Positions 14,509-63,670 of a stretch of DNA of 64,000 nt are shown piece after piece. This stretch comes from Actinomycetes bacterium. GTDB taxonomy: Bacteria > Actinomycetota > Coriobacteriia > WRKU01 > WQUG01. The position numbers were made by a program, and so were the translations under genes. The stretch's first letter is position 1, and every line of letters begins with the position of its first letter. The notes under the pieces are model-generated. The model did not search any database. It was not told where the DNA came from and saw nothing but the letters and a program-made list of their open reading frames with translations. The stretch is from the NCBI GenBank assembly GCA_031272275.1, contig JAISUC010000021.1, forward strand, positions 7,490 to 71,489, given 5' to 3'.

Positions 14509-14573
14509 GGGCGCGACGGGACGCGCTCCCCCTATTTATCAGCCATCACCGCTTGAGCGAAAGGAACACGACG

Positions 14574-15323
14574 ATGTTTACCACAATCAAAGACGCGGTC
14601 AGCGCCATCAAGGAACGCGATCCGGCCGCGACCAATACCCTGTCCGCACTGATTAACTACCCCGGGCTGCATGCGCTGCTGTTTCATCGCTGGCACCACT
14701 GGTTGCACGTACACGGGCTGCGGTTTTTGGCGCGCTGGGGCAGCCAGGTGGCGCGTTGGCTGACCGGCATCGAGATACACCCCGGCGCCACCATCGGCAG
14801 ACGCTTTTTCATCGACCACGGTATGGGCGTGGTGATCGGCGAGACCACGATTATCGGCGATGACGTGACGCTGTATCAGGGCGTGACGCTGGGCGGCACC
14901 GGCAAGGAAACCGGCAAGCGCCACCCGACGCTGCTGAACGGCGTGACGGTGGGGGTGGATGCGATTGTGCTGGGCGCCATCACGTTGGGCGAGCGCTGCA
15001 AAGTGGGTGGCGGTGCCGTGGTGGTCCATGACGTGCCTGCGGATTGCACCGTGGTGGGGATTCCGGCGCGTGCGGTGATACGTCGCAGTGCCGAGGAACG
15101 CGACCGGTTGCGCAGGACGCGGAACTTGGTCGCGCCCGAACTGCCGCACGAGGATTTGCCGGACCCGATCATCGACGTGTTCGCAACGTTGCTGGCGCGC
15201 ATCAAGCGGCTGGAAGGGCGCTGTGGCGTGCCGCTGGAACGCGACCCGGTGGACACGGAAAGCTACCTGTTCGAGATCGAGCAGATCGCAGACACCATGT
15301 TTCAGGACGGCGCCGGTATTTAG
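14574..15323 (+). CDS. cysE: Serine O-acetyltransferase
   Basis: SATase N-terminal domain plus hexapeptide repeats (GATIGRRFFIDHGMGVVIGETTIIGDDVTLYQGVTLGG); RBS AAAGGA. Confidence 0.85.
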   Translation: MFTTIKDAVSAIKERDPAATNTLSALINYPGLHALLFHRWHHWLHVHGLRFLARWGSQVARWLTGIEIHPGATIGRRFFIDHGMGVVIGETTIIGDDVTLYQGVTLGGTGKETGKRHPTLLNGVTVGVDAIVLGAITLGERCKVGGGAVVVHDVPADCTVVGIPARAVIRRSAEERDRLRRTRNLVAPELPHEDLPDPIIDVFATLLARIKRLEGRCGVPLERDPVDTESYLFEIEQIADTMFQDGAGI

Positions 15324-15348
15324 ACCTCGAGTAGACAGGAACGAATTT

Positions 15349-15391
15349 GAGCGAGTCAAAAAAAGCTGCAAAGCTTTTATTGATCTCGCTC
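15349..15391. repeat. 43-nt long hairpin element, copy 1 (GAGCGAGTCAAAAAAAGCTgcaAAGCTTTTATTGATCTCGCTC)
   Basis: Nested inverted repeat (outer GAGCGAG/CTCGCTC, inner AAAAGCT/AGCTTTT) inside the AT-rich cysE-cysS spacer. Confidence 0.6.
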
Positions 15392-15439
15392 ATATGGTCG
15401 AAACAGAAAGTACAGAAAAGTATTGTAGGTTCAGTGGGC

Positions 15440-15485
15440 GAGCGAGCCGAAAAAACCTGTGATAGGTTTTTATTGATCTCGCTCG
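15440..15485. repeat. Long hairpin element, copy 2 (GAGCGAGCCGAAAAAACCTgtgatAGGTTTTTATTGATCTCGCTCGC)
   Basis: Same architecture and flanks as copy 1. Confidence 0.6.
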
Positions 15486-15825
15486 CCTGCTGCAAGTTCA
15501 GCGACAGCGGAATTGTGATGTGGTCGATCAACGGGCGAGGTCGAGGAGTGTGAGTGGTTCTGCGAGGTAAGCGGGCTGTAGCCCGTGTCCGAGCACGGTT
15601 CCGAAACACGACAATGACATTCGCCCGTTCAGCGACCACATCCGATCACATAGGAAACGAGCCTCTTACTGAGGCCCGTTTCCCGACTGATGAGGGGAAC
15701 CCTGTTTATCGCCAAGCCGGTGCGTGCGACTTGACCCTTCGCGCACAGGATCCCATGCACCTAAATCGTAGCCGACATACCGCGCGTCAAAGGTTTTATC
15801 CTATACATCCCCCCGAATAATCCTT

Positions 15826-15834
15826 GCTATACTA
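15826..15834 (+). promoter_or_regulatory. Extended -10 promoter TGCTATACT placed 5 nt before the cysS ATG (leaderless)
   Basis: Shares CCTTGCTATAMT with the ispD promoter; no SD. Confidence 0.5.
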
Positions 15835-15839
15835 CGGAT

Positions 15840-17402
15840 ATGAAGATTTACAATACCATGACCCGCACAAAGGAAACCTTCGTACCGCGCGAGCCCGGGC
15901 GCGTCGCAATGTACGTCTGTGGACCGACCGTCTACAACTACATTCACATCGGTAACGCGCGCACATTCCTGTCCTTCGACGTGATTCGCCGCTACCTGAC
16001 TTGGCGCGGTTTTCAGGTGACCTTCATCCAAAATATCACCGATGTCGACGACAAAATCATCCGCCGCGCCGCCGAAGAGGCGCGCGAACCGTCCCAGGTG
16101 GCTGACGACTATACTCGCGCCTTCATCGACGAGATGCGCGCGCTGGGGGTTGCCGACCCCACGATTCGCCCCTTTGCGACGGCGATGATTCCGGCGATGA
16201 TCGACATGATCCGGCGCCTGATCGACACCGACCACGCTTACGTGGCCGGCGATCGTGACGACAGCGCGGACACCGACGGTTCCGCACCCGACAGCCCCGC
16301 TGCCCCCGCCGGCGACGTGTATTTTTCCGTGCGCTCATTTCCCGATTACGGCAAGCTGTCCGGCCGCAACGTCGACGAACTCCGCCATGGCGCGCGCATC
16401 GCGGTCGACGAACGCAAACGCGACCCGCTGGATTTCGCCCTGTGGAAAGCCGCAAAGCCCGGCGAACCGGCCTGGAACAGCCCCTGGGGCCCGGGACGTC
16501 CCGGCTGGCACATCGAATGTTCCGCCATGTCGGCAGACGAACTGGGCCTGCCCTTTGACATCCACGGCGGCGGCGTGGACCTGATATTCCCGCACCACGA
16601 AAACGAAATCGCCCAATCCGAGGCCGCGACCGGAACCCGCATGGCAAACTACTGGCTGCACGGCGGCATGCTGCAAACCGGCGGCGAAAAAATGAGCAAA
16701 TCCCTGGGCAACTTCCTGCTGCTGCACGACGTGCTGGAACGCTATGAACCGGCCGTCATCCGCCTGTTGATGCTGCAAACGCACTACCGCAGCCCCATCG
16801 AGTTCTCCGACGAACGCCTACAGGAAACCCGCAGCACCTTGGATCGCATCCGCGGCTTCCTGGACCGCGCGCGCAGGACACAGACAATAGGGCGGGGGAG
16901 CACGTCCCGCACCGACGATTTGAGTGCGGCTGTTACCGCGGCCCGCGACAAGTTCGTGACCGAAATGGACGACGACTTTAACGCGGCCGGTGCCCTGGCG
17001 GCTCTGTTCGAGTTGATACGGTACGGCAACCGGTATCTGGATGCGCTGCAGACAGCGGGCGATACCGGTGATACGGCTGATGCAGGCGACGACGGTGCCA
17101 CCGCCACCGACGCAAGCGCCGCCGCACCCGCCACCGACGCTCCCGACACGGCGCTGCAATCCGTCACCGACACTTTGGTCGAACTGCTGGATGTCTTAGG
17201 CATTGACCCGACGCCACCGGCAGACACTGCCGCAGACGCCCCCGATGCGCAGGCGCAACAGCTGCTGGAACAGCGCAGCGCCGCACGTGCCGCCAAAGAT
17301 TGGGCGCGTGCCGATGCGATTCGCGACGACCTGGACGCACGGGGCTACACCATCGAAGACACCGCGGCAGGCCCCCGCCTGGTCCGCAAACAACCGGCGT
17401 AA
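15840..17402 (+). CDS. cysS: Cysteine--tRNA ligase
   Basis: [17 protein letters not shown] (HIGH) and KMSKS; Asp/Ala/Thr-rich low-complexity insert and tail. Confidence 0.95.
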
Positions 17403-17418
17403 ACTCGCCTGCGCACCT

Positions 17419-18150
17419 ATGTATCTGGAAGGAAAAAACGCCGTACTGGAAGCCCTTCGGGCAGGCACCCCCTTGCAGCAACTGTTGCTGTTCGACGGCG
17501 CGCGCCCGGACGGTGCCCTGAACGAAATCGTCCGCCGCGCCGGACAGGCGTCTGTTCCGGTCACCCGTATGTCGCGCCGCAAACTGGACGAGCTCAGCGA
17601 ACGCGGCAAACACCAGGGCGTGATGGCACAGGTCGCACCGTTCGAATACACTCCGCTGCCGCGTATTCTGGATGCGGTCGATACCGTGGCAAACGCCCTC
17701 ATTATCGTGCTGGATCACGTGGTCGATCCGGTCAATGTCGGTGCCATCGCCCGTACGGCCGAGGTCGTGGGCGCCGCCGCCCTGGTCATCGCCGATCGTC
17801 GGGCGGCCGCCATCACGCCTGCGGCGCACAAAGCCGCAGCCGGTGCCTTGAACCATCTGCCTGTCGCGCGCGTCACCAACATCACGCGCGTCATCGAACA
17901 ATTGCAACAGGCGGGATTCTGGGTCGCGGGTGCCGACGGCAGCGCCGACACACTTGCCTGGGATGCCGCACTGACCGGAAAAATCGCCCTGGTCATGGGC
18001 TCCGAGGGCACGGGACTGGCGCGTTTGGTGCGTGAACGCTGTGACTTTCTGGTGAAACTGCCCCAGCACGGCAGGATCGGGTCGTTGAATGTCTCCCAGG
18101 CGACCTGTGCGTTGGCATACGAATGGCTGCGTCAGAACCGTGTGACCTGA
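17419..18150 (+). CDS. rlmB: TrmH-family 23S rRNA (Gm2251) 2'-O-methyltransferase
   Basis: SpoU_sub_bind plus SpoU methylase motifs (LDHVVDPVNVGAIARTAEVVGA...LVMGSEGTGL). Confidence 0.8.
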   Translation: MYLEGKNAVLEALRAGTPLQQLLLFDGARPDGALNEIVRRAGQASVPVTRMSRRKLDELSERGKHQGVMAQVAPFEYTPLPRILDAVDTVANALIIVLDHVVDPVNVGAIARTAEVVGAAALVIADRRAAAITPAAHKAAAGALNHLPVARVTNITRVIEQLQQAGFWVAGADGSADTLAWDAALTGKIALVMGSEGTGLARLVRERCDFLVKLPQHGRIGSLNVSQATCALAYEWLRQNRVT

Positions 18151-18214
18151 TGGGACGCACTCCCCCATATGTGCGTGATGCAGGCACACATCGCCACCTA
18201 CACGGGGAATCCTG

Positions 18215-18727
18215 ATGGCACGCAGCCACCTGATAATCGACGGCTACAACGTTATTTTCCAAGCGGAACCCTATGCCGCATTCGCTCGCGACGGGCAATG
18301 GGACCGCGCCCGCGATGCGCTGATATCAGACGTCGCAAGCTACGTGCGCCCCGGTTTTCGGGTGACGGTGGTGTTCGACGGGACGACCAACCCGCGCCCT
18401 GTGCGCGAACCACAGCGTATGTTGGGGGTCACAGTGCTCTTTTCCGCGCACGGACAGACGGCCGACGCGGTCATCGAGCGGCTGGCTCAGGAATCGCGCG
18501 GACGCGGGGATGCGGTCGAGGTCGTGACCGGCGACGCCATCGTGCAATGGACCGCGCTGGGACCGGGCGTCGTACGCCGCAGCGTGCGCGAGTTCATCGA
18601 CCAGCTGCAACACGGCTATGGGGACTGGGAGCGCGAACGCGATGCGCCCGCGAAACGCTCGACCTTGGAAACCCGCGTCAGCCCCGCCGCGCGTGACCTG
18701 CTGCGCCGCATCCGCGAGGGTGACTGA
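18215..18727 (+). CDS. NYN-domain (YacP-like) ribonuclease
   Basis: MARSHLIIDGYNVIF...VVFDG, the YacP/Rae1-like NYN signature; conserved position after rlmB. Confidence 0.8.
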   Translation: MARSHLIIDGYNVIFQAEPYAAFARDGQWDRARDALISDVASYVRPGFRVTVVFDGTTNPRPVREPQRMLGVTVLFSAHGQTADAVIERLAQESRGRGDAVEVVTGDAIVQWTALGPGVVRRSVREFIDQLQHGYGDWERERDAPAKRSTLETRVSPAARDLLRRIREGD

Positions 18728-18779
18728 GCGAACACGAACCGAACGCGCGCCTCATCACCCCACGTCTCGGCGCCGCACC

Positions 18780-19856: not shown

Positions 19857-20006
19857 CGCTCCTCCTCAATCCCCGTCCGGAAATGCCCCGAATCGGATGG
19901 ACTCACGGCAAACCCAATCTCGCTTTGCCACCTGCTCGTATTGTACAATTGCCATTCTGCACGCAACGCAATTCAGGTAACCCGGAAGCAGGGGGAGTAC
20001 GTCCCA

Positions 20007-21089: not shown

Positions 21090-22978
21090 GCGCAGTCAAG
21101 CTGCTGATGGGAAACGAGGCGATCGCACTGGGTGCTCTGCGCGCAGGCGTGCGTGTGTGCACGGGATACCCCGGCACGCCCTCCAGCGAGATTCTGGAAA
21201 CCATCGCGCGTGAACATCCGGCGGGCGTGCATTATGAATGGTCGGTCAACGAAAAATCCGCGCTGGAGCTTGCGGCCGGTGCCGCCCAGTCAGGCGCGCG
21301 CAGCATGGTCACCATGAAACAGGTGGGGCTGAACGTGGCATCCGACCCGCTGATGAGCCTGAATTACACCGGTGTGGCAGGCGGCCTGGTGGTGGTGGTG
21401 GCAGACGATCCGGGCCCCATTTCGTCGCAGACCGAACAGGATTCGCGGCGTTTCGCGCAGTTCGCGCGTCTGTGCTGCTTTGACCCGGCGACGCCTGAAG
21501 AGGCCTATCTGATGATGGAACAGGCCTTTGAGCTCAGCGAACGCATCGGGCGCCCGGTGGTTCTGCGCCCCACGACGCGGGTCTGCCACAGCTATTCGAC
21601 CGTGCAGATGCGCCCCCGTGTGGACCGGTGCGTTCCTTCCGGTTTTCAGAAAGACGACAGTCGGTGGGTGATCTTTCCGCGATTGGCGTATGCGAACAAG
21701 CTGCAAATCGAGCAGGCGCTGGCAGACCTTGCGGCGTCCCGTCCGCCGATGGTGGGGGACACGTACCTGCAGGCGCCCGCCGCCGCAGCCGGTGGCGAAC
21801 GCATCGGCATTGCTGCGGGCGGTGTCACTTGGCAGTACCTGTTAGAGGCACTCGATCTGCTGAAAGACGCGCTTGCCGTCCGACCGGCCCTGTTGAAGGT
21901 CGGGGTCTACCCGCTGGCACAGGGGCAGTGCCGGGAATTCCTGTCCGCCTGCGACCGCGTCTTGGTGCTCGAGGAACTGGATGCTGTGATCGAGGACGCG
22001 TTGGCGCTGCTTGCGGCGCGCAGCTGCCTCAATACGCGGGTGTGCGGCAAGCGCACCGGCGACAGTTTCCTTGCGGGCGAAGCGAGTGTCGCGGGAATCT
22101 GTGACCTGCTGACGGCGTTCATTCCGGGTGCCGGCGGCGTGTCCGCGCCTACTCGGCATGACATCCCCGCACCGCCGCTGCCGCAACGCCCGCCGGTGCT
22201 CTGTGCGGGCTGCCCGCATCGCGGGTCGTTCTTTGCGGTGAAATACGCGATGCGCGGACGGCGCATCACCTGCAGCGGCGACATCGGCTGCTATACCTTG
22301 GGTAATGCCGCGCCGCTCGCGATGGTCGACACCTGTCTGTGCATGGGCGCGGGTATAACCCAGGCACAGGGCATCGCGGTGGTTGATAACCTGATACATA
22401 ACTCAGAGGAAGCCCCCGTCCACTTCGCATTCATCGGCGACTCCACCTTTTTGCACACCGGTGTTGCAGGACTGATGAACGCCGCGTGGAACGGCCACGA
22501 TATTGTGGTCTGCATTCTGGACAACTCGACCACTGCGATGACCGGCGGTCAGCCGCATCCCGGTATGGGCAGGCGCCTGGACGGCAGTCCCGCCCCGGTC
22601 ATCGACATCGAATCGGTCTGCCGCGCCGCCGGCGCCGACCGGATCTATCGCGCGAACGCCTTCGATTTCACCGGCAGCGTCGACATCGTACAGCGCGCGG
22701 CGGCGGACAGCGGCGTGCGCGTGATTATCTTTTCCGGTCCCTGCATCAACTTGGTCCCGCGCGGCACACCGCTGACCGTAACGCAATCCTGCACCGGCTG
22801 CGGTCGCTGCACGGCGCGCCTGGGTTGTCCCGCGCTCTCGATGCTTCCCGCTGACGGAACCGCACCCGCCCGCGCCCAGGTTGACGCGGTCCTCTGTACC
22901 GGCTGCGGGCTGTGTGCGCAGATCTGTCCCGCCGGCGCGCTCGTTTCCACCTCGCAAAATCGGGGTGATGGCGCATGA
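21086..22978 (+). CDS. iorA: Indolepyruvate ferredoxin oxidoreductase alpha subunit
   Basis: 630 aa; TPP-binding domains; two C-terminal 4Fe-4S motifs CTGCGRC...CP and CTGCGLCAQICP. Confidence 0.9.
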   Translation: MSAVKLLMGNEAIALGALRAGVRVCTGYPGTPSSEILETIAREHPAGVHYEWSVNEKSALELAAGAAQSGARSMVTMKQVGLNVASDPLMSLNYTGVAGGLVVVVADDPGPISSQTEQDSRRFAQFARLCCFDPATPEEAYLMMEQAFELSERIGRPVVLRPTTRVCHSYSTVQMRPRVDRCVPSGFQKDDSRWVIFPRLAYANKLQIEQALADLAASRPPMVGDTYLQAPAAAAGGERIGIAAGGVTWQYLLEALDLLKDALAVRPALLKVGVYPLAQGQCREFLSACDRVLVLEELDAVIEDALALLAARSCLNTRVCGKRTGDSFLAGEASVAGICDLLTAFIPGAGGVSAPTRHDIPAPPLPQRPPVLCAGCPHRGSFFAVKYAMRGRRITCSGDIGCYTLGNAAPLAMVDTCLCMGAGITQAQGIAVVDNLIHNSEEAPVHFAFIGDSTFLHTGVAGLMNAAWNGHDIVVCILDNSTTAMTGGQPHPGMGRRLDGSPAPVIDIESVCRAAGADRIYRANAFDFTGSVDIVQRAAADSGVRVIIFSGPCINLVPRGTPLTVTQSCTGCGRCTARLGCPALSMLPADGTAPARAQVDAVLCTGCGLCAQICPAGALVSTSQNRGDGA

Positions 22979-23658
22979 CGACCGGACGCAGCACAACGAA
23001 CGTCCTGATAGCCGGCGTCGGCGGCCAGGGAACCGTGCTTGCCGCACGGTTGGTGGGGTCTGCGGCACTCGCGTCGGGTCTGCAGGTCCGCGGCAGCGAA
23101 ACCATCGGCATGGCACAGCGCGGCGGCAGCGTGGTCAGCCATCTGCGCTTGGGGCATGATATCGCATCCCCGCTGATAGCCCCCGGCACCGCAGACGTGC
23201 TGATCGCCTTCGAACCCGGCGAGGCTGCACGTGCCGCCGCCTACCTGAAGCCGGACGGTGTCTTGGTCGCGTGCGACCGCGCCATCATTCCGGCCGTCGC
23301 TGCCGATTACGCGCCGCGCGATACACGGGCTTGGCTGCGGGACGCACTCCCCCATGTATATCTGTTGGATGGCGAGGCGATTCTGCGGACCTGCGGTGCG
23401 CGTGCGCTGAACGTGGTGTTGTTGGGCGCGACCGTGCAGCTGGGGTGTCTGCCCTTTGGTGCCGATGCGCTGGCAGATGCCATCCGCGCGCGGCTGCAGC
23501 CACAGTTCCATGATATGAACCTGCGCGCGCTGAACTACGGTGCCGAACTGGTCGCCGTCGCCGCTTCTGTTGTCCCCGACCCTACACCCGACGCCCCAGC
23601 CGACGCTCCCACCGACGCCCCACCCGGAAGGCAGGAACCCGCCCATGCAGATGACTGA
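22975..23658 (+). CDS. iorB: Indolepyruvate ferredoxin oxidoreductase beta subunit
   Basis: IAGVGGQGTVLAARL, the POR gamma-like fold; 4-nt overlap with iorA. Confidence 0.85.
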   Translation: MTTGRSTTNVLIAGVGGQGTVLAARLVGSAALASGLQVRGSETIGMAQRGGSVVSHLRLGHDIASPLIAPGTADVLIAFEPGEAARAAAYLKPDGVLVACDRAIIPAVAADYAPRDTRAWLRDALPHVYLLDGEAILRTCGARALNVVLLGATVQLGCLPFGADALADAIRARLQPQFHDMNLRALNYGAELVAVAASVVPDPTPDAPADAPTDAPPGRQEPAHADD

Positions 23659-24880
23659 TGAGATGCTCTCGGCCGTGCGCGCCAGCATCCGCCACGCAAA
23701 GAACAGCGAATTCTACCGGCGCCACTACGCCGACATCGAGCCCGACGACATTAAGACGCTCGCGGATTTCCGCCGGCTGCCCTTCACCGACAAAGAGGAT
23801 CTGCGCGGCGCATACCCGCTGGGACTGTGTGCGGTGCCGACCGATGAAATTGTGCGGATTCATTCGTCCAGCGGCACCACCGGCACCCCGGTGATTATCC
23901 CCTACACCGCCCGCGACGTGCACGACTGGGCGGTCATGTTCAAGCGCTGCTATGAAACGGCCGGCATCACGCGCGCCGACCGCATCCAGATTACGCCCGG
24001 TTACGGCCTCTGGACGGCGGGCATCGGGTTCCAACTGGGGGCAGAGCTGCTGGGCGCGATGGCGGTCCCGATGGGGCCGGGCAACACCGACAAACAGCTG
24101 CGGATGATGATGGACCTGCGCTCGACGGTGCTTTGCGCGACTTCGTCGTATGCGCTGCTCTTGGCCGAAGAAATCGAACGGCGCGGGGTGCACGACAGCA
24201 TCTGCCTGCGCAAAGGGGTGATCGGCTCCGAGCGCTGGGGCGAAAAGATGCGCCGGCGCATCGCGAACGAACTGGGCGTCGATCTGTACGACATCTACGG
24301 CCTGACCGAAATCTACGGACCGGGCATCGGGATCAACTGCGACTGCCAGGACGGCATGCACATCTGGACCGACTACATGTACTTCGAGATCATCGACCCC
24401 AAGACGGGGGAGTGCGTCCCGGACGGTGAATCGGGCGAAATCGTCATCACGACCCTGAAAAAAGAGGGCGCGCCGCTGATTCGTTACCGCACGCACGACC
24501 TGTCACGCGAGATTGCAGGCAGCTGTCCCTGTGGCAGTGATTACCCGCGCTTGGCGGCGATTATCGGCAGGTCGGACGACATGGTAAAGGTCAAGGGGAC
24601 CATCATCTATCCCAGCCGCATCGACGAGTTTCTGGCCGGGCTTGCCGGAGCCAGCAGCGAATACCAGGTCATGATCGATCACTTGAACGGGCGTGACCAG
24701 CTGACGCTCTTTTTCGAAACCGCCGTGGCGGAGGGGCCCGATCGCGCGCAACTGCAAAAGGCGGCCGAGGCCGGTTTCAAACAGGCGCTGGGTATTACCG
24801 CAAAGACCAAGCCGGTCAGTATCGGTGACCTGCCCCGCAGCGAGAAAAAGACGACGCGTATATTCGACAACCGCTACTAG
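23645..24880 (+). CDS. paaK: Phenylacetate-CoA ligase family (arylacetate-CoA ligase)
   Basis: PaaK N-terminus (FYRRHYADIEPDDIKTLADFRRLPFTDKEDLRGAYP) and SSGTTGTPV AMP-binding motif; RBS AGGAA. Confidence 0.85.
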   Translation: MQMTDEMLSAVRASIRHAKNSEFYRRHYADIEPDDIKTLADFRRLPFTDKEDLRGAYPLGLCAVPTDEIVRIHSSSGTTGTPVIIPYTARDVHDWAVMFKRCYETAGITRADRIQITPGYGLWTAGIGFQLGAELLGAMAVPMGPGNTDKQLRMMMDLRSTVLCATSSYALLLAEEIERRGVHDSICLRKGVIGSERWGEKMRRRIANELGVDLYDIYGLTEIYGPGIGINCDCQDGMHIWTDYMYFEIIDPKTGECVPDGESGEIVITTLKKEGAPLIRYRTHDLSREIAGSCPCGSDYPRLAAIIGRSDDMVKVKGTIIYPSRIDEFLAGLAGASSEYQVMIDHLNGRDQLTLFFETAVAEGPDRAQLQKAAEAGFKQALGITAKTKPVSIGDLPRSEKKTTRIFDNRY

Positions 24881-24940
24881 GGCTTAGGGGCGCGTTCGTT
24901 ATCCGCCTGTGCGGCATATGGCTCGACTCGCGTAACCGAC

Positions 24941-25075
24941 GTCATTGCGAGCATCGCGATAGCGATGCGTAGCAATCCACCGGTGCGGGCATCTGCCCGC
25001 CCACCGACGTCATTGCGAGCCCGCCGTAGGCGGGCGTGGCAATCCACCGGTGCGGGCATCTGCCCGCACCGGATC
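24941..25075. repeat. Tandem pair of composite REP-like elements (GTCATTGCGAGC-palindrome-GCAATCC plus hairpin CCGGTGCGGGCAtcTGCCCGCACCGG)
   Basis: Two units of about 68 nt, 24941-25008 and 25009-25075. Confidence 0.75.
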
Positions 25076-27675: not shown

Positions 27676-27688
27676 ACATCCCACGTCC

Positions 27689-27757
27689 GTCATTCCGGGC
27701 CCGCGGGTAGCACAACCGCCGTCTTTGCGAGCGCACGGTCGTGCGCGCGGCAATACA
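27689..27757. repeat. Two further REP-like elements of the GTCATTGCGAGC...GCGGCAAT family
   Basis: GTCATTCCGGGCCCGCGGGTAGCACAACC and GTCTTTGCGAGCGCACGGTCGTGCGCGCGGCAATAC. Confidence 0.6.
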
Positions 27758-27931
27758 TGCGGCGGCGTAGCCGCCGGAAAACAGGCCCGTCCGTCCGCAC
27801 GGGACAACTCTTCCGCAAACGGCCGCGCCGGGACGCACTCCCCCGAATTGGGGTGTCAGGCATGGTCATTACTGGGCTACAATGGGATGTGCCAGACGCT
27901 TGGCTTAATTCGGAACAGGAAGGGATGAACA

Positions 27932-29682: not shown

Positions 29683-31065
29683 ATGAACTATCTGCCGATT
29701 ACCCGGCGGCAGCAACAGCAGATGCTCGATACCATCGGCGTTTCTGATGTGTCTCAGCTGTATACCGACGTGCCGGACAGCGTATTGTTGTCCGGCGCGC
29801 CGTCTGTGGCTGGCGGCATCAGCGAGGTCGCACTGACTCGCACGCTGGACGAACTGGCCGGACAAAACGCGAATGCCGCGAACGACTACGTCTGCTTTGC
29901 AGGCGGCGGCATCTATGACCATCACCGTCCCGCTTTCATCGACCACCTGATCCGCCGACCCGAGTTCTTCACCGCCTACACCCCCTATCAGCCCGAGGTC
30001 AGCCAGGGTACGCTGCAGGCCATCTATGAATACCAGACCGGCATCTGCCTGCTGACCGGACTGGACGTCGCGAACGCCAGTATGTATGACGGCGCCACCG
30101 CCCTGGTCGAGGCCGCGTTTATGGCGACCCGCATCAAGCGCGGACGGCGCGTGGTGTTGGCATCGGCCGCACTCTCGCCCGACAAACTGCAGACGCTTGC
30201 GACCTATGCGGCATCCGACCTGATCGAGGTCCGCCACATCCCCGTCTCAAGCGGTGTGACCGATGCGGCGGCACTGGCGGACGCGCTTGCGGCAGCCGAC
30301 GGACAAGTGGCAGCCGTGCTGTTGCCCTATCCGAACTATTACGGTCTGGTCGCTGACGTGTCTGTGATGATTGCCGCGACCCACGACGCCGGCGCGCTGG
30401 CGGTGCTCGACACCAATCCCATCATGCTGGGGGTGCTGGCATCCCCGGGCAGCCTGGGCGCAGACATTGCGGTGGGTGAAGGCCAGCCGCTGGGCAACGC
30501 CATGAGTTTCGGCGGTCCGGGTCTGGGCTATTTTGCCTGCACGGCAGCCTGCATGCGCCAGATTCCGGGACGGCTGGTCGGCCGCACCCATGACGTGGAC
30601 GGCAAACGCGGCTACGTGTTGACGCTCGCCACCCGCGAACAGCACATCCGCCGCGAAAAGGCGACCTCGAACATCTGCAGCAACCACGCCCTGAACGCGC
30701 TGATCGCCGGCATGTATCTGGCGGCAACAGGCCCGGACGGCCTGCGCTCGATTGCGCTCGATTGCCTGGCGAAAGCCGACTACCTGCGCGAACAGCTGCT
30801 TGCGACCGGTCTGTTCAGCGACCCCTTTGCCACAGACGATGGCTCTGACGGATCAAGCGGGGGAGCACGTCCCCACGGCTATGAGTTCACGCTGACCTGG
30901 ACGGGGCAGACACCGCTGCGCGACCTGCACGACGAACTGTTCGCACGCGGATACCTGGCCGGTATCATCACACCGGACGGGACGGGCCTGATATTGGCGA
31001 CAACCGAAAAGCGCACGATCGCAGAAATAGACGCATTTTGTCAGGAGGTGGTCCGTTGTGCCTGA
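29683..31065 (+). CDS. gcvPA: Glycine dehydrogenase (decarboxylating) subunit 1
   Basis: The GcvPA N-terminal half of the split P protein. Confidence 0.95.
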   Translation: MNYLPITRRQQQQMLDTIGVSDVSQLYTDVPDSVLLSGAPSVAGGISEVALTRTLDELAGQNANAANDYVCFAGGGIYDHHRPAFIDHLIRRPEFFTAYTPYQPEVSQGTLQAIYEYQTGICLLTGLDVANASMYDGATALVEAAFMATRIKRGRRVVLASAALSPDKLQTLATYAASDLIEVRHIPVSSGVTDAAALADALAAADGQVAAVLLPYPNYYGLVADVSVMIAATHDAGALAVLDTNPIMLGVLASPGSLGADIAVGEGQPLGNAMSFGGPGLGYFACTAACMRQIPGRLVGRTHDVDGKRGYVLTLATREQHIRREKATSNICSNHALNALIAGMYLAATGPDGLRSIALDCLAKADYLREQLLATGLFSDPFATDDGSDGSSGGARPHGYEFTLTWTGQTPLRDLHDELFARGYLAGIITPDGTGLILATTEKRTIAEIDAFCQEVVRCA

Positions 31066-39401: not shown

Positions 39402-39468
39402 GTCGTGACGCGCGCGGGGACGTACTCCCCCTGAAAACAAGCTATGGACACGCCCGGATGCGTGTTGT

Positions 39469-47218: not shown

Positions 47219-47220
47219 GC

Positions 47221-49741: not shown

Positions 49742-49767
49742 GAATCGGAACAGGAGGAGGCAGTCAG

Positions 49768-50772: not shown

Positions 50773-50784
50773 GAAGGACTGGAA

Positions 50785-51578: not shown

Positions 51579-51579
51579 C

Positions 51580-52023: not shown

Positions 52024-52025
52024 CC

Positions 52026-53351: not shown

Positions 53352-53414
53352 GGTCTTTGAATAGGAAAGCCGTGGGTCGGTTTTCGGCTTACTGCGTTTC
53401 ACGCTTGTTTCATG

Positions 53415-53450
53415 TCAGGGCATTCGGTACCACCGGATGCCCTGTTTTCT
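53415..53450 (+). terminator. Intrinsic terminator after secY (CAGGGCATTCGG-taccac-CGGATGCCCTG plus TTTTCTT)
   Basis: 11-bp stem with one bulge followed by a T-run; it ends the ribosomal cluster, and adk/map/infA do not follow. Confidence 0.6.
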
Positions 53451-53456
53451 TATAAT
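53451..53456 (+). promoter_or_regulatory. -10 TATAAT placed 6 nt before the eutBC ATG (leaderless)
   Basis: Same geometry as the ispD and cysS promoters; no SD. Confidence 0.45.
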
Positions 53457-53462
53457 AGCCGC

Positions 53463-55568
53463 ATGTACACAACCACCCTGCATGATCGCAGTTTCACCTT
53501 CGCGACGCTGAAAGCGCTCCTTGCCTGTGCCAGCGAGGAAAAAACCGGTGATGTGATGGCGGGTATCGCCGCCACCACCGAGCTGGAACGAATCGCCGCG
53601 CGCCGTATTCTGGCGGACTTACCCCTCAGCACGCTCTATGAAAACCCCGTCATTGCCTATGACACCGACGAAGTCACCCGCGTGATGATTGATGCGATTG
53701 ATGCGACCGCCTACGGCCGCATCAAAGACCTGACCGTGGGGGCATTCCGCGAACTGATTCTGGCGTCATCCCCGTCCTACCTGGCAAGCATCCGTGACGG
53801 CATCACGGCAGAGATGGCAAGTGCCACCGCGAAACTGATGAGCAACCTGGACCTGGTCTACGCCGCAGCCAAGCTCCCCGTAACGGCGACCTGCAACACG
53901 ACCATCGGGCTGCCCGGCACTTTCAGCGTGCGCTGCCAGCCGAACCACCCGACCGATGACGTCGCAGGAATCCTGGCTTCCACTGCCGAGGGACTCAGCT
54001 ACGGATGCGGGGATGCGGTTATCGGCGTGAACCCCGCCACCGACGACCCCGACAGCGTACGTGAAATCCTAACGGCGCTCCGCCGCCTGGTCGACGAATA
54101 CGCCATCCCGACCCAGAACTGCGTACTCGCGCACGTCAGCACCCAGATGGCAGCCCTTGCCTCTGGAGCCCCGGTTGACCTGATGTTCCAGTCGATTGCC
54201 GGCAGCCAACGTGCCAACGCAGCCTTTGGCATCGATGTGGCACTACTGGACGAAGCCGACCACATGATGCGACAGCTGAAAAACAGCACCGGCCCCAACT
54301 ATTTCTACTTTGAAACCGGCCAGGGCAGCGCGCTTTCTGCCGACGGGCACCACGGCGCCGACCAGCAAACGCTCGAGGCCCGCGCCTACAGCTTGGCAAA
54401 ACGCTACCGCCCCTTCCTGGTGAACACGGTGGTGGGCTTCATCGGCCCGGAATATCTGTATGACGGCCGCCAAATCATCCGCGCCGGCCTGGAAGACCAC
54501 TTCATGGGCAAACTGCTGGGCGTCCCCGCAGGCGTGGACGTCTGCTACACCAACCACGCCCGCGCCGACCAAAACGACGTAGACGTGCTGGTCGCGCTGC
54601 TTGCCCAGGCGGGTTGCAACTACATCATGGGCATCCCCACAACCGATGACGTGATGCTGGCATACCAAAGCTCCAGTTTCCACGACACGGCGACCATGCG
54701 CGAGCTCTTGGGTAAACATGCCATCCGGCCCTTCGAGCACCGCATGGAACAGCTCGGCGTTCTGTCGGACGGCCGGCTGACCACGCGCGCCGGCAACCCG
54801 CGCCTATTCGGCTACGACCCGCCGACCACGCACACAGCGAACACAGCGCAAGCCACACAATCGGCGGGGGAGCACGTCCCGACGCCCGCCCGTTTGGATG
54901 TCGGTCACGCCGGCCCGCGCCTGCGCACAGCGACACTTTTGGACCTGCGAGCCGACCACGCAATTGCACGCGATGCCGTTTGGGACGATACCGACTGCAG
55001 CGTGGCGGATGACCTGGGCTTTGTCACCGTGCAGACGCTGGTGAACGATAAAGAGGAATACCTGCGCCGCCCCGATTTGGCGCGTGGTTTCAGTGACGAA
55101 TCGCTGGCCTACCTGCGCCGCCACGCAGCCCCGGGTGCAGACCTGCAGATTATCGCAGCTGACGGATTGTCGGTCGCGGCCGTTCAGGAAAACCTGGCGC
55201 GGATCTATCCGGAACTGATCCGACTGGCGGGTGCTCGCGGCTACAGCACGGGCACACCCATCTATGTGCGTTATGGGCGTGTGGCGACGATGGACAAGAT
55301 TTCAGAAGCCCTGCAGGCAAAGGTCACCGTCCTGTTGGTGGGGGAACGCCCCGGCCTGGGTTGCCGCACCTCGATGAGTTGCTACATGGCTTGGGAGGCA
55401 AGCCCGGACAAGCCCGAGGCACAACGCAACGTAGTCTCGAACATCCACGACGGCGGTCTGCCACCCGAAGCTGCCGCCGAACGCATCATCTCGATTGCCG
55501 CCGATATGTTTCGGTACCGCACATCGGGCGTCGAACTGAACCGACTGCTCCATCGCGTCGCCCGCTGA
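53463..55568 (+). CDS. eutBC: Ethanolamine ammonia-lyase, large and small subunits fused (EutB-EutC)
   Basis: N-terminal about 455 aa is EutB-like and the C-terminal about 220 aa is EutC-like (LVGERPGLG..), joined by a Thr/Ala-rich linker; the ORF-track start at 53412 was rejected in favour of MYTTTLHDRSFTF. Confidence 0.8.
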   Translation: MYTTTLHDRSFTFATLKALLACASEEKTGDVMAGIAATTELERIAARRILADLPLSTLYENPVIAYDTDEVTRVMIDAIDATAYGRIKDLTVGAFRELILASSPSYLASIRDGITAEMASATAKLMSNLDLVYAAAKLPVTATCNTTIGLPGTFSVRCQPNHPTDDVAGILASTAEGLSYGCGDAVIGVNPATDDPDSVREILTALRRLVDEYAIPTQNCVLAHVSTQMAALASGAPVDLMFQSIAGSQRANAAFGIDVALLDEADHMMRQLKNSTGPNYFYFETGQGSALSADGHHGADQQTLEARAYSLAKRYRPFLVNTVVGFIGPEYLYDGRQIIRAGLEDHFMGKLLGVPAGVDVCYTNHARADQNDVDVLVALLAQAGCNYIMGIPTTDDVMLAYQSSSFHDTATMRELLGKHAIRPFEHRMEQLGVLSDGRLTTRAGNPRLFGYDPPTTHTANTAQATQSAGEHVPTPARLDVGHAGPRLRTATLLDLRADHAIARDAVWDDTDCSVADDLGFVTVQTLVNDKEEYLRRPDLARGFSDESLAYLRRHAAPGADLQIIAADGLSVAAVQENLARIYPELIRLAGARGYSTGTPIYVRYGRVATMDKISEALQAKVTVLLVGERPGLGCRTSMSCYMAWEASPDKPEAQRNVVSNIHDGGLPPEAAAERIISIAADMFRYRTSGVELNRLLHRVAR

Positions 55569-55648
55569 CAGCCGTATCAACGTGCATTTTTGTATCGACT
55601 TTGTTTGAACGGGAACAATTCCCCGCCGTCTTGTGCTACCATCAGCGC

Positions 55649-59989: not shown

Positions 59990-59998
59990 TTTCGGTCG

Positions 59999-60658
59999 TC
60001 ACTCTTCTGTATCCTCACTAAAGTCAAGAGCGAGTTGCTCTCCTGCTTTCAGGTGTTCCTCTTCTGCTTTCAGGAGTTTCTCGAACCGTTTTTGCACGAT
60101 TTCTTCCAATGATTTCACGAGTTCTTGCAAATCTTCAATATCTTTCAGTTCGCGTAGCGAAAAAAGGGTGTCACCAAATTCATCTCGATATCGACGATAC
60201 AGAACAACGGGTTTGTTGTTCAGCAGTAGCTGGATTGCATTTCTCAGACTTCCCGAGCTTACCGATAGCTGTCCGTAACGTGGGTGCATATACGTATCCT
60301 GCCACACAATCAAACCATATTTGCACGCGTCACCCATTGCCCGGTCTTTTTCTGTTTCCCGTTCTTTTTGCTTACGTGGTTTACCGTCTTCACTAGATTT
60401 TTCTTCGGCCTTTGGTGAAACCTGAACTATGTCCCAGTCCTCCGGCACCTTTATCCGGGGCGTATCGTGAATGGTGTATACCGTGACGTTGGTATACTTA
60501 CGTTTTCTGAGATCTTCAGCGATACGAGCATCAACCCCCCTCTCAGAGTCACCGATCAACACGGGGATATCTTGGTCGACAATGTTGGCAATTCGTTCCT
60601 CTAACTCCTCGGGCAGAGAATCAATCTGTCGTGATCCGCTAATGAACACAGAACCCAT
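59999..60658 (-). CDS. SLOG/DprA-like Rossmann-fold protein (N-terminal FISGSR...VLIGDSERGVD) with an acidic coiled-coil C-terminus
   Basis: 219 aa; low-GC island gene; the pattern resembles DprA/YpsA/LOG-type nucleotide-binding modules; the family assignment is tentative. Confidence 0.5.
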   Translation of the reverse strand: MGSVFISGSRQIDSLPEELEERIANIVDQDIPVLIGDSERGVDARIAEDLRKRKYTNVTVYTIHDTPRIKVPEDWDIVQVSPKAEEKSSEDGKPRKQKERETEKDRAMGDACKYGLIVWQDTYMHPRYGQLSVSSGSLRNAIQLLLNNKPVVLYRRYRDEFGDTLFSLRELKDIEDLQELVKSLEEIVQKRFEKLLKAEEEHLKAGEQLALDFSEDTEE

Positions 60659-60718
60659 TAAATACTCCTTAAATTCTTCAGTTAATCTGTCGAGACTCCA
60701 TTGTACCCGCCCCGTCCC

Positions 60719-61468
60719 TTAAAAGGGAATGTCTTCGGTCAGGACCTCGACGCTCGGGCCGTTTTGTCGAGACTCAGCTGTACCCACCCCGTCCTTTTTT
60801 ATACCACCACCGGTGTTTTTGCAGAGTGACAGGAAGTATATGTGACCGGCTCCGTTCTTCTGCAGTTCCTTAATACAGGCCCGTAAGGTGGCACCTTCCT
60901 CATACGTGTCATCAACAATCAAGGTGGGAAGGCCATTCAAAGTATAAGTGCACGAGAAATCACCTTCAGAAAAATTAGATCCCCTCTCTTTTCTTTTCGA
61001 CTCCACACACGTCTTCTTCAGTAAGGCTTCAACGTATCGGTATTCAGGTGTTGCGAGTCCTTGTGCGATTGCATAGACGTGCTGAATATCTCGGTCTTTC
61101 GAGGACGGAGCCGGCACGATCAAAAGAGACCCGAGGTCTTCTGCCGCAACCAGGTTTTTGATTACACCGGATTTCTTTATTCTACTTACCGCATCACTGA
61201 TGAGTTCCAGCTTTTCCTTCCTACCAAGATTCTTCCAATACTTTAAGTGATTGATAGTCTCCCCGAAATCAGAGCGATTGGCAGCGTCCTTATGATACGG
61301 TTGGATTGCCAAGCCCTTGGTAAGACCGTCTGCAGTGATGGGAAGAAAAAGCCTACTGCCACAACCACCGAACCAGTCTTTGCAATAGTACTCACCTTCA
61401 TGGAGTTTACTCTTCATAATATCGGTGTTGCCACAAAACGGGCATCGCTCTATTCCTAGGAATTCCAT
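60719..61468 (-). CDS. ComF-like phosphoribosyltransferase-domain protein with N-terminal C4 zinc ribbon
   Basis: CPFCGN..C..GGCG zinc ribbon; PRTase type I motif LIVDDTYEEGATLRACIKEL; strong RBS GAGGAGGTG. Confidence 0.75.
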   Translation of the reverse strand: MEFLGIERCPFCGNTDIMKSKLHEGEYYCKDWFGGCGSRLFLPITADGLTKGLAIQPYHKDAANRSDFGETINHLKYWKNLGRKEKLELISDAVSRIKKSGVIKNLVAAEDLGSLLIVPAPSSKDRDIQHVYAIAQGLATPEYRYVEALLKKTCVESKRKERGSNFSEGDFSCTYTLNGLPTLIVDDTYEEGATLRACIKELQKNGAGHIYFLSLCKNTGGGIKKDGVGTAESRQNGPSVEVLTEDIPF

Positions 61469-61569
61469 TTCTTCACCTCCTCACAAAACGGGCATCGCTT
61501 TTTCTCGATTACCTTGACCCTGCCTTGTTTCTGCATCTCTTTAAATAAATCCAACATACTCTTAGCCAT
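61456..61569 (-). CDS. 37-aa ORF (MAKSMLDLFKEMQKQGRVKVIEKKRCPFCEEVKKWNS) that duplicates the PRTase N-terminal half zinc ribbon and overlaps the PRTase start
   Basis: RBS GAGGTGG 7 nt upstream; an 18-nt direct repeat cacaaaacgggcatcgct sits at 61432-61449 and 61482-61499; not in the supplied ORF track (under 60 aa). Confidence 0.3.
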   Translation of the reverse strand: MAKSMLDLFKEMQKQGRVKVIEKKRCPFCEEVKKWNS

Positions 61570-61581
61570 CTTTTCCACCTC

Positions 61582-62904
61582 TCACTGCAGACCGCGTTTT
61601 ATGATCTTCATATGACGCTTTGTTCCCTTGAATAGTGACGGGCTTCGTTCGAATGTTCGATGGGATCGCTTTACGTAGTTCAGGAAATTCGGCTGCTTTC
61701 GATCCCCCTTCTCCGAATAGATCTGATAGAGCATCCTTCTTGATTTTGCCCCTTTATGTGGGTCTTGTGCCGCAATGGCGTTTACCGTATTGATCTTTCG
61801 GCGTAGGCGATAGTGGTATTTTGAAATGGTCTTATCGCGAATGCGGACTTCCGTGCCGTCAATAGCGAAACCCAGATATTCCAACACATCTTTCGTGTTC
61901 GGTGTATCCGGCAGATAGTCCTCGTTGCAGTTGTGGATTGCACTGTGCACACGGTGATAAACACGGGTTTTGTCCGGCTGCAGGTCGAGCCCGGGGATTG
62001 AATCAATAATGCCGACCAGCCTTTTGTAGATACAATCAAAACCGACTCCGTCCGTTTCGTCGGAAGGGATGATGACGATGAAGTCATCACAATAGCGCAT
62101 GTATTTACCGGAGTATTCCGTCACCAAATCATGTATCAACTTGTCGAATTCCAGCATATAGACGTTTGATAAAACCCCACTGATGGGGGAGCCTTGCGGT
62201 ATCCCATAGTCGTTGTCATTACGTGCGATAGCACCACTGCGCGATTCGCGTTTACTCAACTGCCTGTATTGCTCAGGGGTCAACACACGCTTTTTTCGGT
62301 CGAGCTCTCTGCGCGTCTTAACCCCATTGATTTCCAGCAAGGACTTCAGGCTCCAATCAGAATAGCGCGTGATGTTCTTGTAGACCGCATAATAATCAGC
62401 AGGGAGCTTTGGGGCACCAAACAATGAAAGAAGTCGTTCTTTCAAGTACCGATGATCCAAGTGGTCAAAGAAGCCCGTAAAATCCCCAATCAACACAAAA
62501 CACTCCGGATGCTCGGCAATACAATCAAAGGCCGCTTTCGCGAAGTCTATGTTGCATTTTTTCAGGTCTGACCGATATGCAATGGCACAATCAGCGGTGC
62601 CGTCAACAGCAATGCGCCGAACGTACTTTTCCTCCAACAGCAGCGAATAGTATTGATAGATGCAGCGATCGATGTGCGCGGCATAGCGAATGGGGCGTTC
62701 TTTTGCCTTGGTACCGGTTCCCTTGTGGTATTTCCGCGTATGCTCGACGTAGTGAATAAAAGGATAGAATCCGTGTCGCGCAACTTTTTCGGGATCCGTG
62801 ATGTAATCCCATTTGCTGTCGCAGCTTACGCGCAGATCAAAGTGCGCGTAGCCTTTTGGCTTGCTGTGTTTATTTCGCCACTCGTGCAGCTGTTCGGGGG
62901 TCAT
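61582..62904 (-). CDS. Reverse transcriptase (retron/defence-associated RT-like, canonical motifs 1-7)
   Basis: RPIRYAAHIDRCIYQYY (motifs 1/2), DFTGFFDHLDH (motif A, D..FF), GIPQGSPISGVLSNVYM (B'), YCDDFIVI (YxDD), LGFAIDG (motif 7); 440 aa with a basic C-terminal tail. Confidence 0.85.
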   Translation of the reverse strand: MTPEQLHEWRNKHSKPKGYAHFDLRVSCDSKWDYITDPEKVARHGFYPFIHYVEHTRKYHKGTGTKAKERPIRYAAHIDRCIYQYYSLLLEEKYVRRIAVDGTADCAIAYRSDLKKCNIDFAKAAFDCIAEHPECFVLIGDFTGFFDHLDHRYLKERLLSLFGAPKLPADYYAVYKNITRYSDWSLKSLLEINGVKTRRELDRKKRVLTPEQYRQLSKRESRSGAIARNDNDYGIPQGSPISGVLSNVYMLEFDKLIHDLVTEYSGKYMRYCDDFIVIIPSDETDGVGFDCIYKRLVGIIDSIPGLDLQPDKTRVYHRVHSAIHNCNEDYLPDTPNTKDVLEYLGFAIDGTEVRIRDKTISKYHYRLRRKINTVNAIAAQDPHKGAKSRRMLYQIYSEKGDRKQPNFLNYVKRSHRTFERSPSLFKGTKRHMKIIKRGLQ

Positions 62905-63167
62905 ATTGTTGTCCCCGAATGCACAAAAGCCACCGGCACGGGGTACGACATCCCTAATCCGGTGGCCCTAAAACGATAATACCTGATGTCATTGACATCG
63001 TCGGCCGTACTCAATTGCACACAAAGTGCGATCATGTAGTTCAATACTTCCCTTATCCCTGCGGATAAGGCGTCCCCATTGTAGATGATTTGCGTTGGGC
63101 TGTCAACGCTCGTTTCGAAGCCGACCAATTGCCTCTCCTGCTCTTCCAGCGGAATAATACTTCCCAT
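62901..63167 (-). CDS. 88-aa hypothetical ORF translationally coupled to the RT (ATGA overlap); alternatively a non-coding RNA region
   Basis: Its stop overlaps the RT start codon; the region holds several stable hairpins (62930-62965, 62985-62999, 63051-63070), so a structured ncRNA is equally possible. Confidence 0.35.
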   Translation of the reverse strand: MGSIIPLEEQERQLVGFETSVDSPTQIIYNGDALSAGIREVLNYMIALCVQLSTADDVNDIRYYRFRATGLGMSYPVPVAFVHSGTTI

Positions 63168-63336
63168 CGTAGAGGCCGTTCTCTTTCAGGATGCGAATCT
63201 GATTTGAGGTCGCATGATGATTCCACATTTCAGAGTTATGATACTGGCTACGATAGCCATGCTGCGCACTTCTATAGATAGCCTTACGGTTATGATAGCC
63301 ATCGCTATAATCGGAATATGAGTTGCGCCTTGCCAT
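63103..63336 (-). CDS. 77-aa Tyr/His/Ser-rich small protein, first gene of the island operon
   Basis: Strong RBS GAGGAAGGG 8 nt upstream of ATG; unusual composition (12 Y, 7 H). Confidence 0.4.
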   Translation of the reverse strand: MARRNSYSDYSDGYHNRKAIYRSAQHGYRSQYHNSEMWNHHATSNQIRILKENGLYDGKYYSAGRAGEAIGRLRNER

Positions 63337-63403
63337 TTGGCATACCCCTTCCTCAACTACTGTTTCCGGTAATCCACCTCAAACCCGAAAATGTGCCAGC
63401 GCA

Positions 63404-63431
63404 AAAATAGCACAGGGGGGGGGGCTGTCAA
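63404..63431 (-). promoter_or_regulatory. Promoter of the island operon: TTGACA - G/C10 homopolymer in the 16-nt spacer - TATTTT
   Basis: Minus-strand TTGACAG-C10-TGTGC-TATTTT; the 10-nt homopolymer tract is at 63415-63424. Confidence 0.45.
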
Positions 63432-63670
63432 GGAGGCTTTTTTCAGTTGCAGATGGGGTACCGATTACGATGAAATCCGCAGTTCAAGCTGCCTCCGCAC
63501 GCCGTCCACCAAACAGAGCCACACTAAAGCGGGGGAGTACGTCCCGGCGTCTGCGTTGGGCTGCGCGCCTGCTGCCGGATGGGCGCTGCTGCGGGACGCA
63601 CTCCCCCCCCTGAAAACGTGGGATTCCGTGTTCAGTTAACTGCAAAATACGTGAAAGTAACTGTCAATAG

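Follow-up and report, generated by a model that had tools for sequence, protein, structure and literature searches.

We analysed a 64,000-nt stretch of DNA from an uncultured Actinomycetota bacterium (contig JAISUC010000021.1 of assembly GCA_031272275.1, positions 7,490 to 71,489; hereafter the window) and found that it carries twelve exact copies of a 15-nt word, GGGGGAGYRCGTCCC, written below as GGGGGAG-YR-CGTCCC. The explanation we favour, at a probability of about 0.35, is that this word is a lineage-specific signature acting at the level of DNA and accumulating by substitution, of the same kind as the DNA uptake sequences (DUS) of Neisseriaceae and the uptake signal sequences (USS) of Pasteurellaceae. 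We are led to this reading because the features of the word, namely its sharpness on both strands, its origin by substitution, its placement at permissive and intergenic sites, its pairs behind genes and its dialects, together correspond to the published footprint of uptake sequences.

A first-pass annotation of the window had reported eleven copies of a 14-mer. The motif is real and stronger than was claimed. Adding one base to the 14-mer defines its sharp form, the 15-mer, of which the window holds 12 exact copies, two of them overlooked earlier (at 23339 on the − strand and 24406 on the + strand), no copy with one mismatch, one with two and five with three. Since about 12 matches with up to three mismatches are expected by chance, the three-mismatch matches are noise; one of these is a supposed partial copy near 58088 (at 58094), which is thus dropped. 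A site near 14516 that had been taken for a looser variant is an exact copy starting at 14518, with a CG centre. The one match with two mismatches, GGGGGAGTACGTTCG at 39152-39166 (+ strand), lies in a histidine kinase gene, where it encodes G-E-Y-V-R; it may be a chance match or a proto-site and is not counted as a member. For the 14-mer with up to two mismatches, 15 matches were obtained against 1.18 expected, a number reached in none of 100 shuffles.

Thirteen positions of the 15-mer are invariant (2 bits each in the logo), position 8 is always C or T and position 9 always A or G, giving the centres TG (five copies), TA (three), CA (three) and CG (one). The regions around the copies are unrelated and the logo contains almost no information outside the word, with the weak exceptions of an A at position −3 (9/12 copies) and a G at position +16 (8/12). 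The word is an imperfect palindrome only (10/14 positions), and no symmetrised variant of the type that a homodimer site would allow occurs in the window. Both orientations are interleaved along the sequence and equally frequent (6:6). The abrupt edge of the word fits ongoing recognition of it and not the decay of copied elements.

An independent Logan assembly of sequencing run SRR14710912 (our loci L001 and L116) is identical to the window across 21.9 kb, so that the motif is not an assembly artefact, and it contains a thirteenth exact copy about 790 nt past the window end. The motif core has a density of 0.20/kb in the window, compared to about 0.02/kb both in 844 kb of unrelated genome loci (among the matches listed) and in 733 kb of viral loci, corresponding to an approximately ten-fold enrichment over background. 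A scan of a genome collection with GGGGGAGTRCGTCCC served as negative control and gave, among the matches listed, solely single chance matches. Scans of viral contigs with two dialects (described below) gave one match to the searched word per locus, in line with background. No Rfam family matched any of the repeats in searches of the window, its relatives and the hairpin region, and a full-text literature search for motif strings returned unrelated primer sequences only.

Gene context was assigned from Pfam scans. Seven of the twelve copies are intergenic and five intragenic (cysS, gcvPA, eutBC, iorB and paaK), which represents a strong intergenic enrichment since coding sequence makes up 89-95% of the two regions for which genes were called. 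Among the intergenic copies, that at 14518-14532 (− strand) lies between ispF, whose stop (14508) is 10 nt before it, and a serine-acetyltransferase-like gene, whose likely ATG is about 42 nt after it. The next, at 18152-18166 (− strand, TG centre), is found 1 nt past the stop of a SpoU/TrmH-type methylase gene (18150), before a YacP/NYN gene (18215). The copy at 19991-20005 (+ strand, TA centre) occupies a divergent intergenic region and provides, as had been proposed, the ribosome-binding site of a ROK gene: the ATG (20007) is 1 nt past the motif and 9 nt past its GGAG, which acts as Shine-Dalgarno sequence. A fourth copy, at 27830-27844 (− strand, TG centre), separates the stop of a BTAD regulator gene (27675) from the start of gcvT (27932); this interval upstream of the glycine-cleavage operon gcvT, gcvH, gcvPA, gcvPB (27676-27931) gave no glycine riboswitch match. 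The copy at 39417-39431 (− strand, TA centre) lies 16 nt past the stop of the histidine kinase gene (39401), and the last two, at 63531-63545 (+ strand, TA centre) and 63593-63607 (− strand, TG centre), form an inverted pair. On the + strand the copy at 39417 is followed by CTGAAAAC and that at 63593 by CCCCTGAAAAC; the earlier observation that CTGAAAAC follows two copies holds for these two, both of which are in reverse-complement orientation.

The intragenic copies use all three sense frames and one antisense frame. The copy at 16894-16908 (+ strand, CA centre) is located in cysS (15840-17402), where it encodes G-S-T-S in the variable segment that links the catalytic domain to the DALR domain. 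That at 23339-23353 (− strand, TG centre) is antisense within the gene for a gamma-type subunit of indolepyruvate/pyruvate oxidoreductase (iorB; 22975-23658, + strand), corresponding to D-A-L-P in a poorly aligned segment. A PaaK-like ligase gene (23540-24880) carries the copy at 24406-24420 (+ strand, TG centre), placed on the conserved T-G-E-x-V-P with x being Cys. In gcvPA (29683-31065), the copy at 30859-30873 (+ strand, CA centre) encodes G-G-A-R-P in the C-terminal part, which does not align to solved homologues. The fifth copy, at 54866-54880 (+ strand, CA centre), encodes G-E-H-V-P in the linker between EutB and EutC. These two halves of ethanolamine ammonia-lyase are fused in one open reading frame (ORF; 53412-55568, 701 aa in the Logan gene call), with a linker of about 24 residues that contains one motif copy. 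The three intragenic copies recognised in the first-pass annotation do lie in three frames (RGSTSR, GGARPH and GEHVPT). Its conclusion that the conserved entity is nucleic acid and not peptide stands as well, given the several frames and the 6:6 strand use, and so does the remark that such copies sit where the proteins tolerate change (the CysS linker, the EutB-EutC linker and the unaligned part of gcvPA).

Alignment of orthologues had been suggested as a way of recognising insertions. The paaK copy aligns without gap to PaaK sequences of the PDB, which have TGEVLP or TGEPVP where the window has TGECVP. Its glycine is encoded by GGG, a minor codon (15% of Gly codons), and the variable position is occupied by a Cys (1.4% of residues). 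For cysS, no insertion was seen. The CysS linker holding the motif varies in all homologues and measures 52 aa between two conserved anchors, against a median of 56; just 2 of 87 homologues are shorter. In the SpoU methylase of a related lineage (L183, see below), the motif copy substitutes four residues in an ungapped alignment. The copies in gcvPA and in the EutB-EutC linker fall outside the segments alignable to solved structures. Since paaK, CysS and the L183 SpoU methylase show no added length, the copies were made in place by substitution: as judged from these three sequence alignments, the window copies are not insertions. From the same gene contexts, the places occupied by intragenic copies are permissive ones, that is linkers, variable segments and synonymous or neutral codon positions.

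Two motif copies separated by a 47-nt GC-rich spacer make up the inverted pair at 63531-63607, which, in agreement with the first-pass annotation, forms a hairpin. It is 77 nt long with a predicted folding energy of −50 kcal/mol (z −2.6 on the + strand, −4.3 on the − strand). Its arms differ at the centre, which results in an A.C mismatch and not in a compensated pair. The hairpin is situated downstream of a minus-strand gene, 185 nt past its stop, and upstream, by about 100 nt, of a promoter-like site preceding a DRT2 reverse-transcriptase gene.

This gene (61582-62904, minus strand) encodes a DRT2-type defence reverse transcriptase (PADLOC Drt2, E 8e-142). It is followed by genes for a 249-aa protein with weak ShosT/PsyrT-like similarity and for a 219-aa protein without family match. 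Together the three span 59999-62904 on the minus strand, within an island of 49% GC (about 60000-64000). Promoter-like sites lie on the minus strand (63431-63404 and 63106-63078). The DRT2 non-coding template RNA would be expected upstream of the reverse transcriptase, in a stretch that includes a called 88-aa ORF (62901-63167) and that gave no Rfam match.

Inverted pairs were also searched for in metagenome contigs. A strict pair pattern gave no match in a collection that lacks the source contig, and a relaxed pattern gave 62 loci, most of which are unrelated GC-rich palindromes. Eight of the 62, all from termite-gut-type samples (Ga0123353, Ga0123355 and Ga0209628 series), have inverted motif arms. 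In most of them these arms are GGGGGAGTGCGTCCA ... TGGACGCACTCCCCC, with small variants in L123, L152 and L176. The arms are conserved and the spacers, of 5-25 nt, are all different. Counting the window pair, an upstream gene is clear for eight pairs, and six of these sit 11-48 nt past a stop codon, in what would be, by position, a putative terminator; the window pair (185 nt) and one other (219 nt) are more distant, and a ninth pair (L147) has no clear upstream gene. At the centre, each arm of a pair varies on its own, which gives G.T pairs or, in the window, an A.C mismatch, and therefore two independent copies of a DNA word fit better than a selected RNA helix. The pair-bearing contigs carry accessory genes (ATPases, a DDE transposase, transporters), and no tyrosine transposase was found on them.

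Two other repeat types were retrieved along with these pairs. Several metagenomes share a different, conserved hairpin with the same GGGGAGTGCGTCC string, CAGGGACT-GGGGAGTGCGTCC...GGGCGCACTCCCC-AATTCCTG, with a variable interior and no Rfam match (L128, L130, L148, L157, L160, L169, L172, L174 and L178). On contigs of about 50% GC (L129, L133, L135, L149, L161 and related loci), units ggcctagtGGGGAGTACGCCC...GGGCGTACTCCCCactaggccacca are repeated in tandem about every 81-102 nt; these arrays appear to be unrelated to the window motif and were caught only by the relaxed pair pattern.

The window CysS has no relative above 62% identity, the next matches being Coriobacteriia- or Anaerosomatales-like metagenome-assembled genomes. 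Three related uncultured Actinomycetota lineages (L117, L183 and L118) carry dialects of the word which share the core GAG-YR-CGTCC and keep the pyrimidine-purine centre. In L117 (GCA_031268615.1), whose CysS is 59% identical to that of the window, the dialect is AGTGAGYRCGYCCA, AGTGAG-YR-CG(T/C)CCA, with 10 exact copies and one with a single mismatch in 21.6 kb against 0.05 expected; conservation there often reaches about 27 nt. The L117 CysS has a dialect copy in the same linker and frame as the window copy (VSTS versus GSTS). In L183 (JGI 3300010167), whose CysS shows 60% identity, a 7.7-kb stretch contains four exact GAGTRCGTCCA, three of which are intragenic; 0.28 matches are expected there with one mismatch allowed. 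L118, from the same sample as L183, presents GGGGGAGTGCGTCC-ATTAT-GGGCGCACTCCCCC about 15-20 nt upstream of cysS. The string GGGGAGTRCGTCCA is present in L118 and in seven other termite-gut-type contigs, six of which have the full GGGGGAGTGCGTCCA. No copy of the motif or of a dialect was detected in three further relatives (L181, L270 and L271; 64 kb in total).

Besides these short copies, the L117 contig contains six composite elements, three of 62 nt (5600-5661, 6893-6954 and 8096-8157) and three of 49 nt (9273-9321, 9893-9941 and 17457-17505). In each, a conserved hairpin CCCCCGG-TCAAG-CCGGGGG is enclosed by two arms, one resembling the motif (AAGTGAG-YR-CGCCCA) and the other partial and inverted (ACTCACTT). 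A motif copy or a composite element is found in almost every intergenic region of this 21.6-kb contig. The CysS proteins of the window and of L117 (P0003) also share an Asp/Gly/Ser-rich insertion after the HAY motif (window 16240-16310, residues ~135-157), longer in L117 and seen in no other homologue. This suggests that the window lineage and L117 are each other's closest sampled relatives.

The first-pass annotation had offered three analogies, of which only that with DUS/USS survived testing: the word occurs in both orientations, inside and between genes, without change of length, in dialects and as pairs past stop codons. Like the window word, the DUS of Neisseriaceae (GCCGTCTGAA and the 12-mer AT-DUS) is a short, non-palindromic, over-represented word on both strands, which occupies permissive positions in genes, is enriched between genes, forms inverted pairs in terminator position and exists as dialects around an invariant core. 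Both the dialects around a conserved core and the inverted pairs in terminators are documented in Neisseriaceae (PMC3630211), and pairs in terminators have been reported for both families (bioRxiv 10.1101/2025.10.24.684340). In N. meningitidis, A. pleuropneumoniae and H. influenzae, 34.5-65% of uptake sequences lie in ORFs, at poorly conserved residues (PMC2817400). Similarly, the USS of Pasteurellaceae (AAGTGCGGT core with AT-rich flanks) shares with the word an origin by substitution, an altered peptide content, poorly conserved positions and terminator pairs; to its flank preference corresponds a weak counterpart in the window, the A at −3. The word nevertheless differs from DUS by its length of 15 nt, its two-position degenerate centre, its frequency (about 1 per 5 kb versus about 1 per kb) and its host, a Gram-positive actinobacterium without known ComP-type receptor, and from USS by its lower density and its phylum. 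Direct comparison of the word with GCCGTCTGAA and AAGTGCGGT revealed no relation, and since the sequences are unrelated it is a member of neither family.

In the proposed mechanism, a sequence-specific DNA-binding component of a DNA-exchange machinery, most likely that of DNA uptake for natural transformation, would prefer double-stranded DNA bearing the word. Fragments matching the word better would be taken up and recombined more often, and substitutions that create or perfect it would become fixed where they are tolerated, i.e. in intergenic DNA, in protein linkers and at synonymous or neutral codon positions. Inverted copies just downstream of a gene could double as terminator-type hairpins. 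Drift of the recognition specificity between lineages would entail drift of the word, leading to dialects around the core GAG-YR-CGTCC. We infer accordingly that something binds the word, that it biases uptake or another form of exchange, that its host is competent and that copies are spread genome-wide.

A number of observations weigh against this uptake-type reading. There is no competence gene (com or pil) within the 64-kb window, and to our knowledge, from the papers cited here and more generally, sequence-specific uptake is known in two proteobacterial families only. Genomes with classical DUS or USS are roughly 2 Mb in size. They carry 1,471-1,892 copies each (PMC2817400), several-fold (about five times) denser than the word with its approximately 1 copy per 5 kb. 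In L117, the 62-nt and 49-nt composite hairpin elements keep their internal spacer between copies, which looks like the copying of a unit, as in miniature inverted-repeat transposable elements (MITEs) or REPINs (see below), and not like independent substitution. The window pair sits in the 49% GC defence island, which was probably acquired recently, whereas uptake sequences are reported to be absent from genes without homologues in related genomes (PMC2817400). The eight pair-bearing metagenome contigs (24 kb, GC 0.44-0.61) have no additional single copy, against about 3.8 expected at the window density. Finally, the long loci showing single copies in relatives were all obtained via cysS and come from the cysS/ribosomal-protein neighbourhood, so that the copies may be regionally clustered, as for ParB/Noc-type sites. 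The low density, the L117 composites, the island pair, the pair contigs devoid of singles and the loci reached through cysS are the reasons why our confidence stays near the value given at the outset.

It is unlikely, in our estimation, that the word belongs to a REP-like (repetitive extragenic palindrome), REPIN-like (inverted REP doublet) or MITE-like repeat, in which an inverted doublet is copied by a transposase acting in trans, for instance a REP-associated tyrosine transposase (RAYT), and the single 15-mers are remnants or half-sites. REPs and RAYT-mobilised REPINs are indeed over-represented words on the scale of 16-mers, with inverted hairpin doublets and intergenic enrichment (PMC3116915), and the word shows the same enrichment (7/12 copies) as well as inverted pairs in the window and on metagenome contigs. 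The six L117 composites with their common inner hairpin resemble REPINs, and several pair-bearing contigs break off at the pair or close to it, which is expected of repeats. However, 61% of REPs are in doublets versus 18% singlets, and the doublets are better conserved (PMC3116915), whereas the window has ten singles for one doublet, every single being perfect. Five of the 12 window copies and three of the four L183 copies are intragenic without change of length, whereas REPs are extragenic. In addition, the spacers of the metagenome pairs are unrelated, the 15-mer is palindromic only in part, and no Y1/RAYT gene was found in the window and related loci, about 150 kb altogether. A MITE, with terminal inverted repeats around a conserved interior and a target-site duplication, is not supported: pair spacers are wholly different between loci, there is no flank duplication, and a conserved interior exists only in the L117 composites. 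Rather unlikely, too, is that the copies are sites of a lineage-specific chromosomal DNA-binding protein, whether an organiser of the ParB/Noc/MatP/SlmA type, a global regulator or a termination factor, selected site by site. Such a protein would account for a sharp, near-invariant sequence on both strands, in and between genes, and for a flexible pyrimidine-purine step exactly on the pseudo-dyad of GGGnnG-YR-CnnCCC, flexible central steps of this kind being typical of DNA-kinking proteins; the regional clustering allowed by the cysS-derived loci would also agree with it. ParB/Noc/MatP-type sites are palindromic, regionally clustered and associated with a cognate protein. In the imperfectly palindromic window word, however, the asymmetric GA and GT positions are invariant, which disfavours a homodimer site. 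Selection site by site hardly explains thirteen sites in 65 kb, among them one that overlies a conserved enzyme motif and costs a Cys codon there, and the pair-bearing contigs have unrelated gene content (transposase, ATPases, transporters).

We consider it quite improbable that the word is a by-product of sequence-specific methylation and biased short-patch repair converting near-matches into the word, as proposed for HIP1 of cyanobacteria. HIP1 (GCGATCGC) is likewise abundant in coding and non-coding DNA and arises by substitution, and the centres CG, TG, CA and TA (1, 5, 3 and 3 copies) form the series that deamination of a methylated CpG at the centre would produce. HIP1 is, however, a perfect 8-nt palindrome and far more frequent, whereas the window word has 15 nt and is asymmetric; we know of no methyltransferase or Vsr-type site that approaches its 13 asymmetric positions, a specificity too long for this explanation, which moreover leaves the inverted pairs behind stop codons unaccounted for. 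An element acting on RNA, such as the target of a small RNA or of an RNA-binding protein, or a signal for pausing or initiation that resembles a Shine-Dalgarno sequence, appears very improbable. It would be compatible with the sense orientation of 9 of 12 intragenic copies (window, L116, L117 and L183), with the ROK copy at the working position of a ribosome-binding site and with the central Y and R, which could keep wobble pairing to G and U. It is at variance with the 6:6 strand use overall, with four of the five single intergenic window copies being antisense to the flanking genes, with the absence of any Rfam family match and with the uncompensated A.C mismatch of the window pair. Almost no weight can be given to the two remaining analogies of the first-pass annotation, an in-frame palindromic insertion of the Rickettsia palindromic element (RPE) type or a restriction-modification target, for which the copies in three reading frames, within variable linkers of three proteins, could be cited. 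RPEs are repeats tolerated within protein-coding genes, as the word is. They are inserted segments of about 100-150 nt that add a peptide, whereas the word is a 15-nt imperfect palindrome without conserved flank, which replaces residues one for one in paaK and the L183 SpoU gene, lies in a short CysS linker and brings no gain of length wherever this can be judged. Restriction targets are generally avoided, not enriched, in the host genome, and the roughly ten-fold over-representation of the word therefore disfavours such a target.

Three further candidates were considered and rejected. The likeness of GGGGAGTACG to the conserved 16S rRNA segment GGGGAGTACGGCCGCAAGG was put down to coincidence, as the dialects and the CGTCC half do not fit. 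Hairpins for TadA-type UACG editing are excluded by flanks unable to form the required anticodon-like stem, and polar sequences of the FtsK/KOPS (FtsK-orienting polar sequence) or Chi type by the interleaved 6:6 orientations.

The window contains a second small family of intergenic repeats, ACGTCATTGCGAGC...GCAATCCACCGGTGCGGGCATCTGCCCGCACCGG, with hairpin-forming arms, at 13167-13200, 24939-24990 and 25007-25075. Two tandem copies are located downstream of the PaaK-like gene, and fragments are found at 7428 and 51598. A paralogue search with a large surface protein of the window gave no match above 37% identity. The 64-kb window as a whole had no Rfam match at gathering score and no tRNA gene.

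Recognition of self-DNA by sequence tags has been documented only in Neisseriaceae and Pasteurellaceae, where it shapes recombination, species barriers and protein composition. If functional, the word described here suggests that the phenomenon is wider than thought and would point to a new sequence-reading component in Gram-positive DNA exchange. More specifically, although we regard this as tentative and rather doubtful, the word could be an uptake-type tag of 'self-DNA' in Gram-positive uncultured Actinomycetota that are probable termite gut symbionts, with the dialects of co-resident lineages acting as barriers to exchange. Were this true, it would be the first such system outside Proteobacteria and would imply a new sequence-reading receptor in actinobacterial DNA uptake or in another exchange route. 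Should the word instead belong to a new REP-like or protein-binding system, copies that arose within genes by substitution would remain an unusual feature in either class. Whatever its function, it provides a compact marker for binning and for tracing these lineages in metagenomes, and its dialects could serve to follow the flow of genes between gut symbionts that live together.

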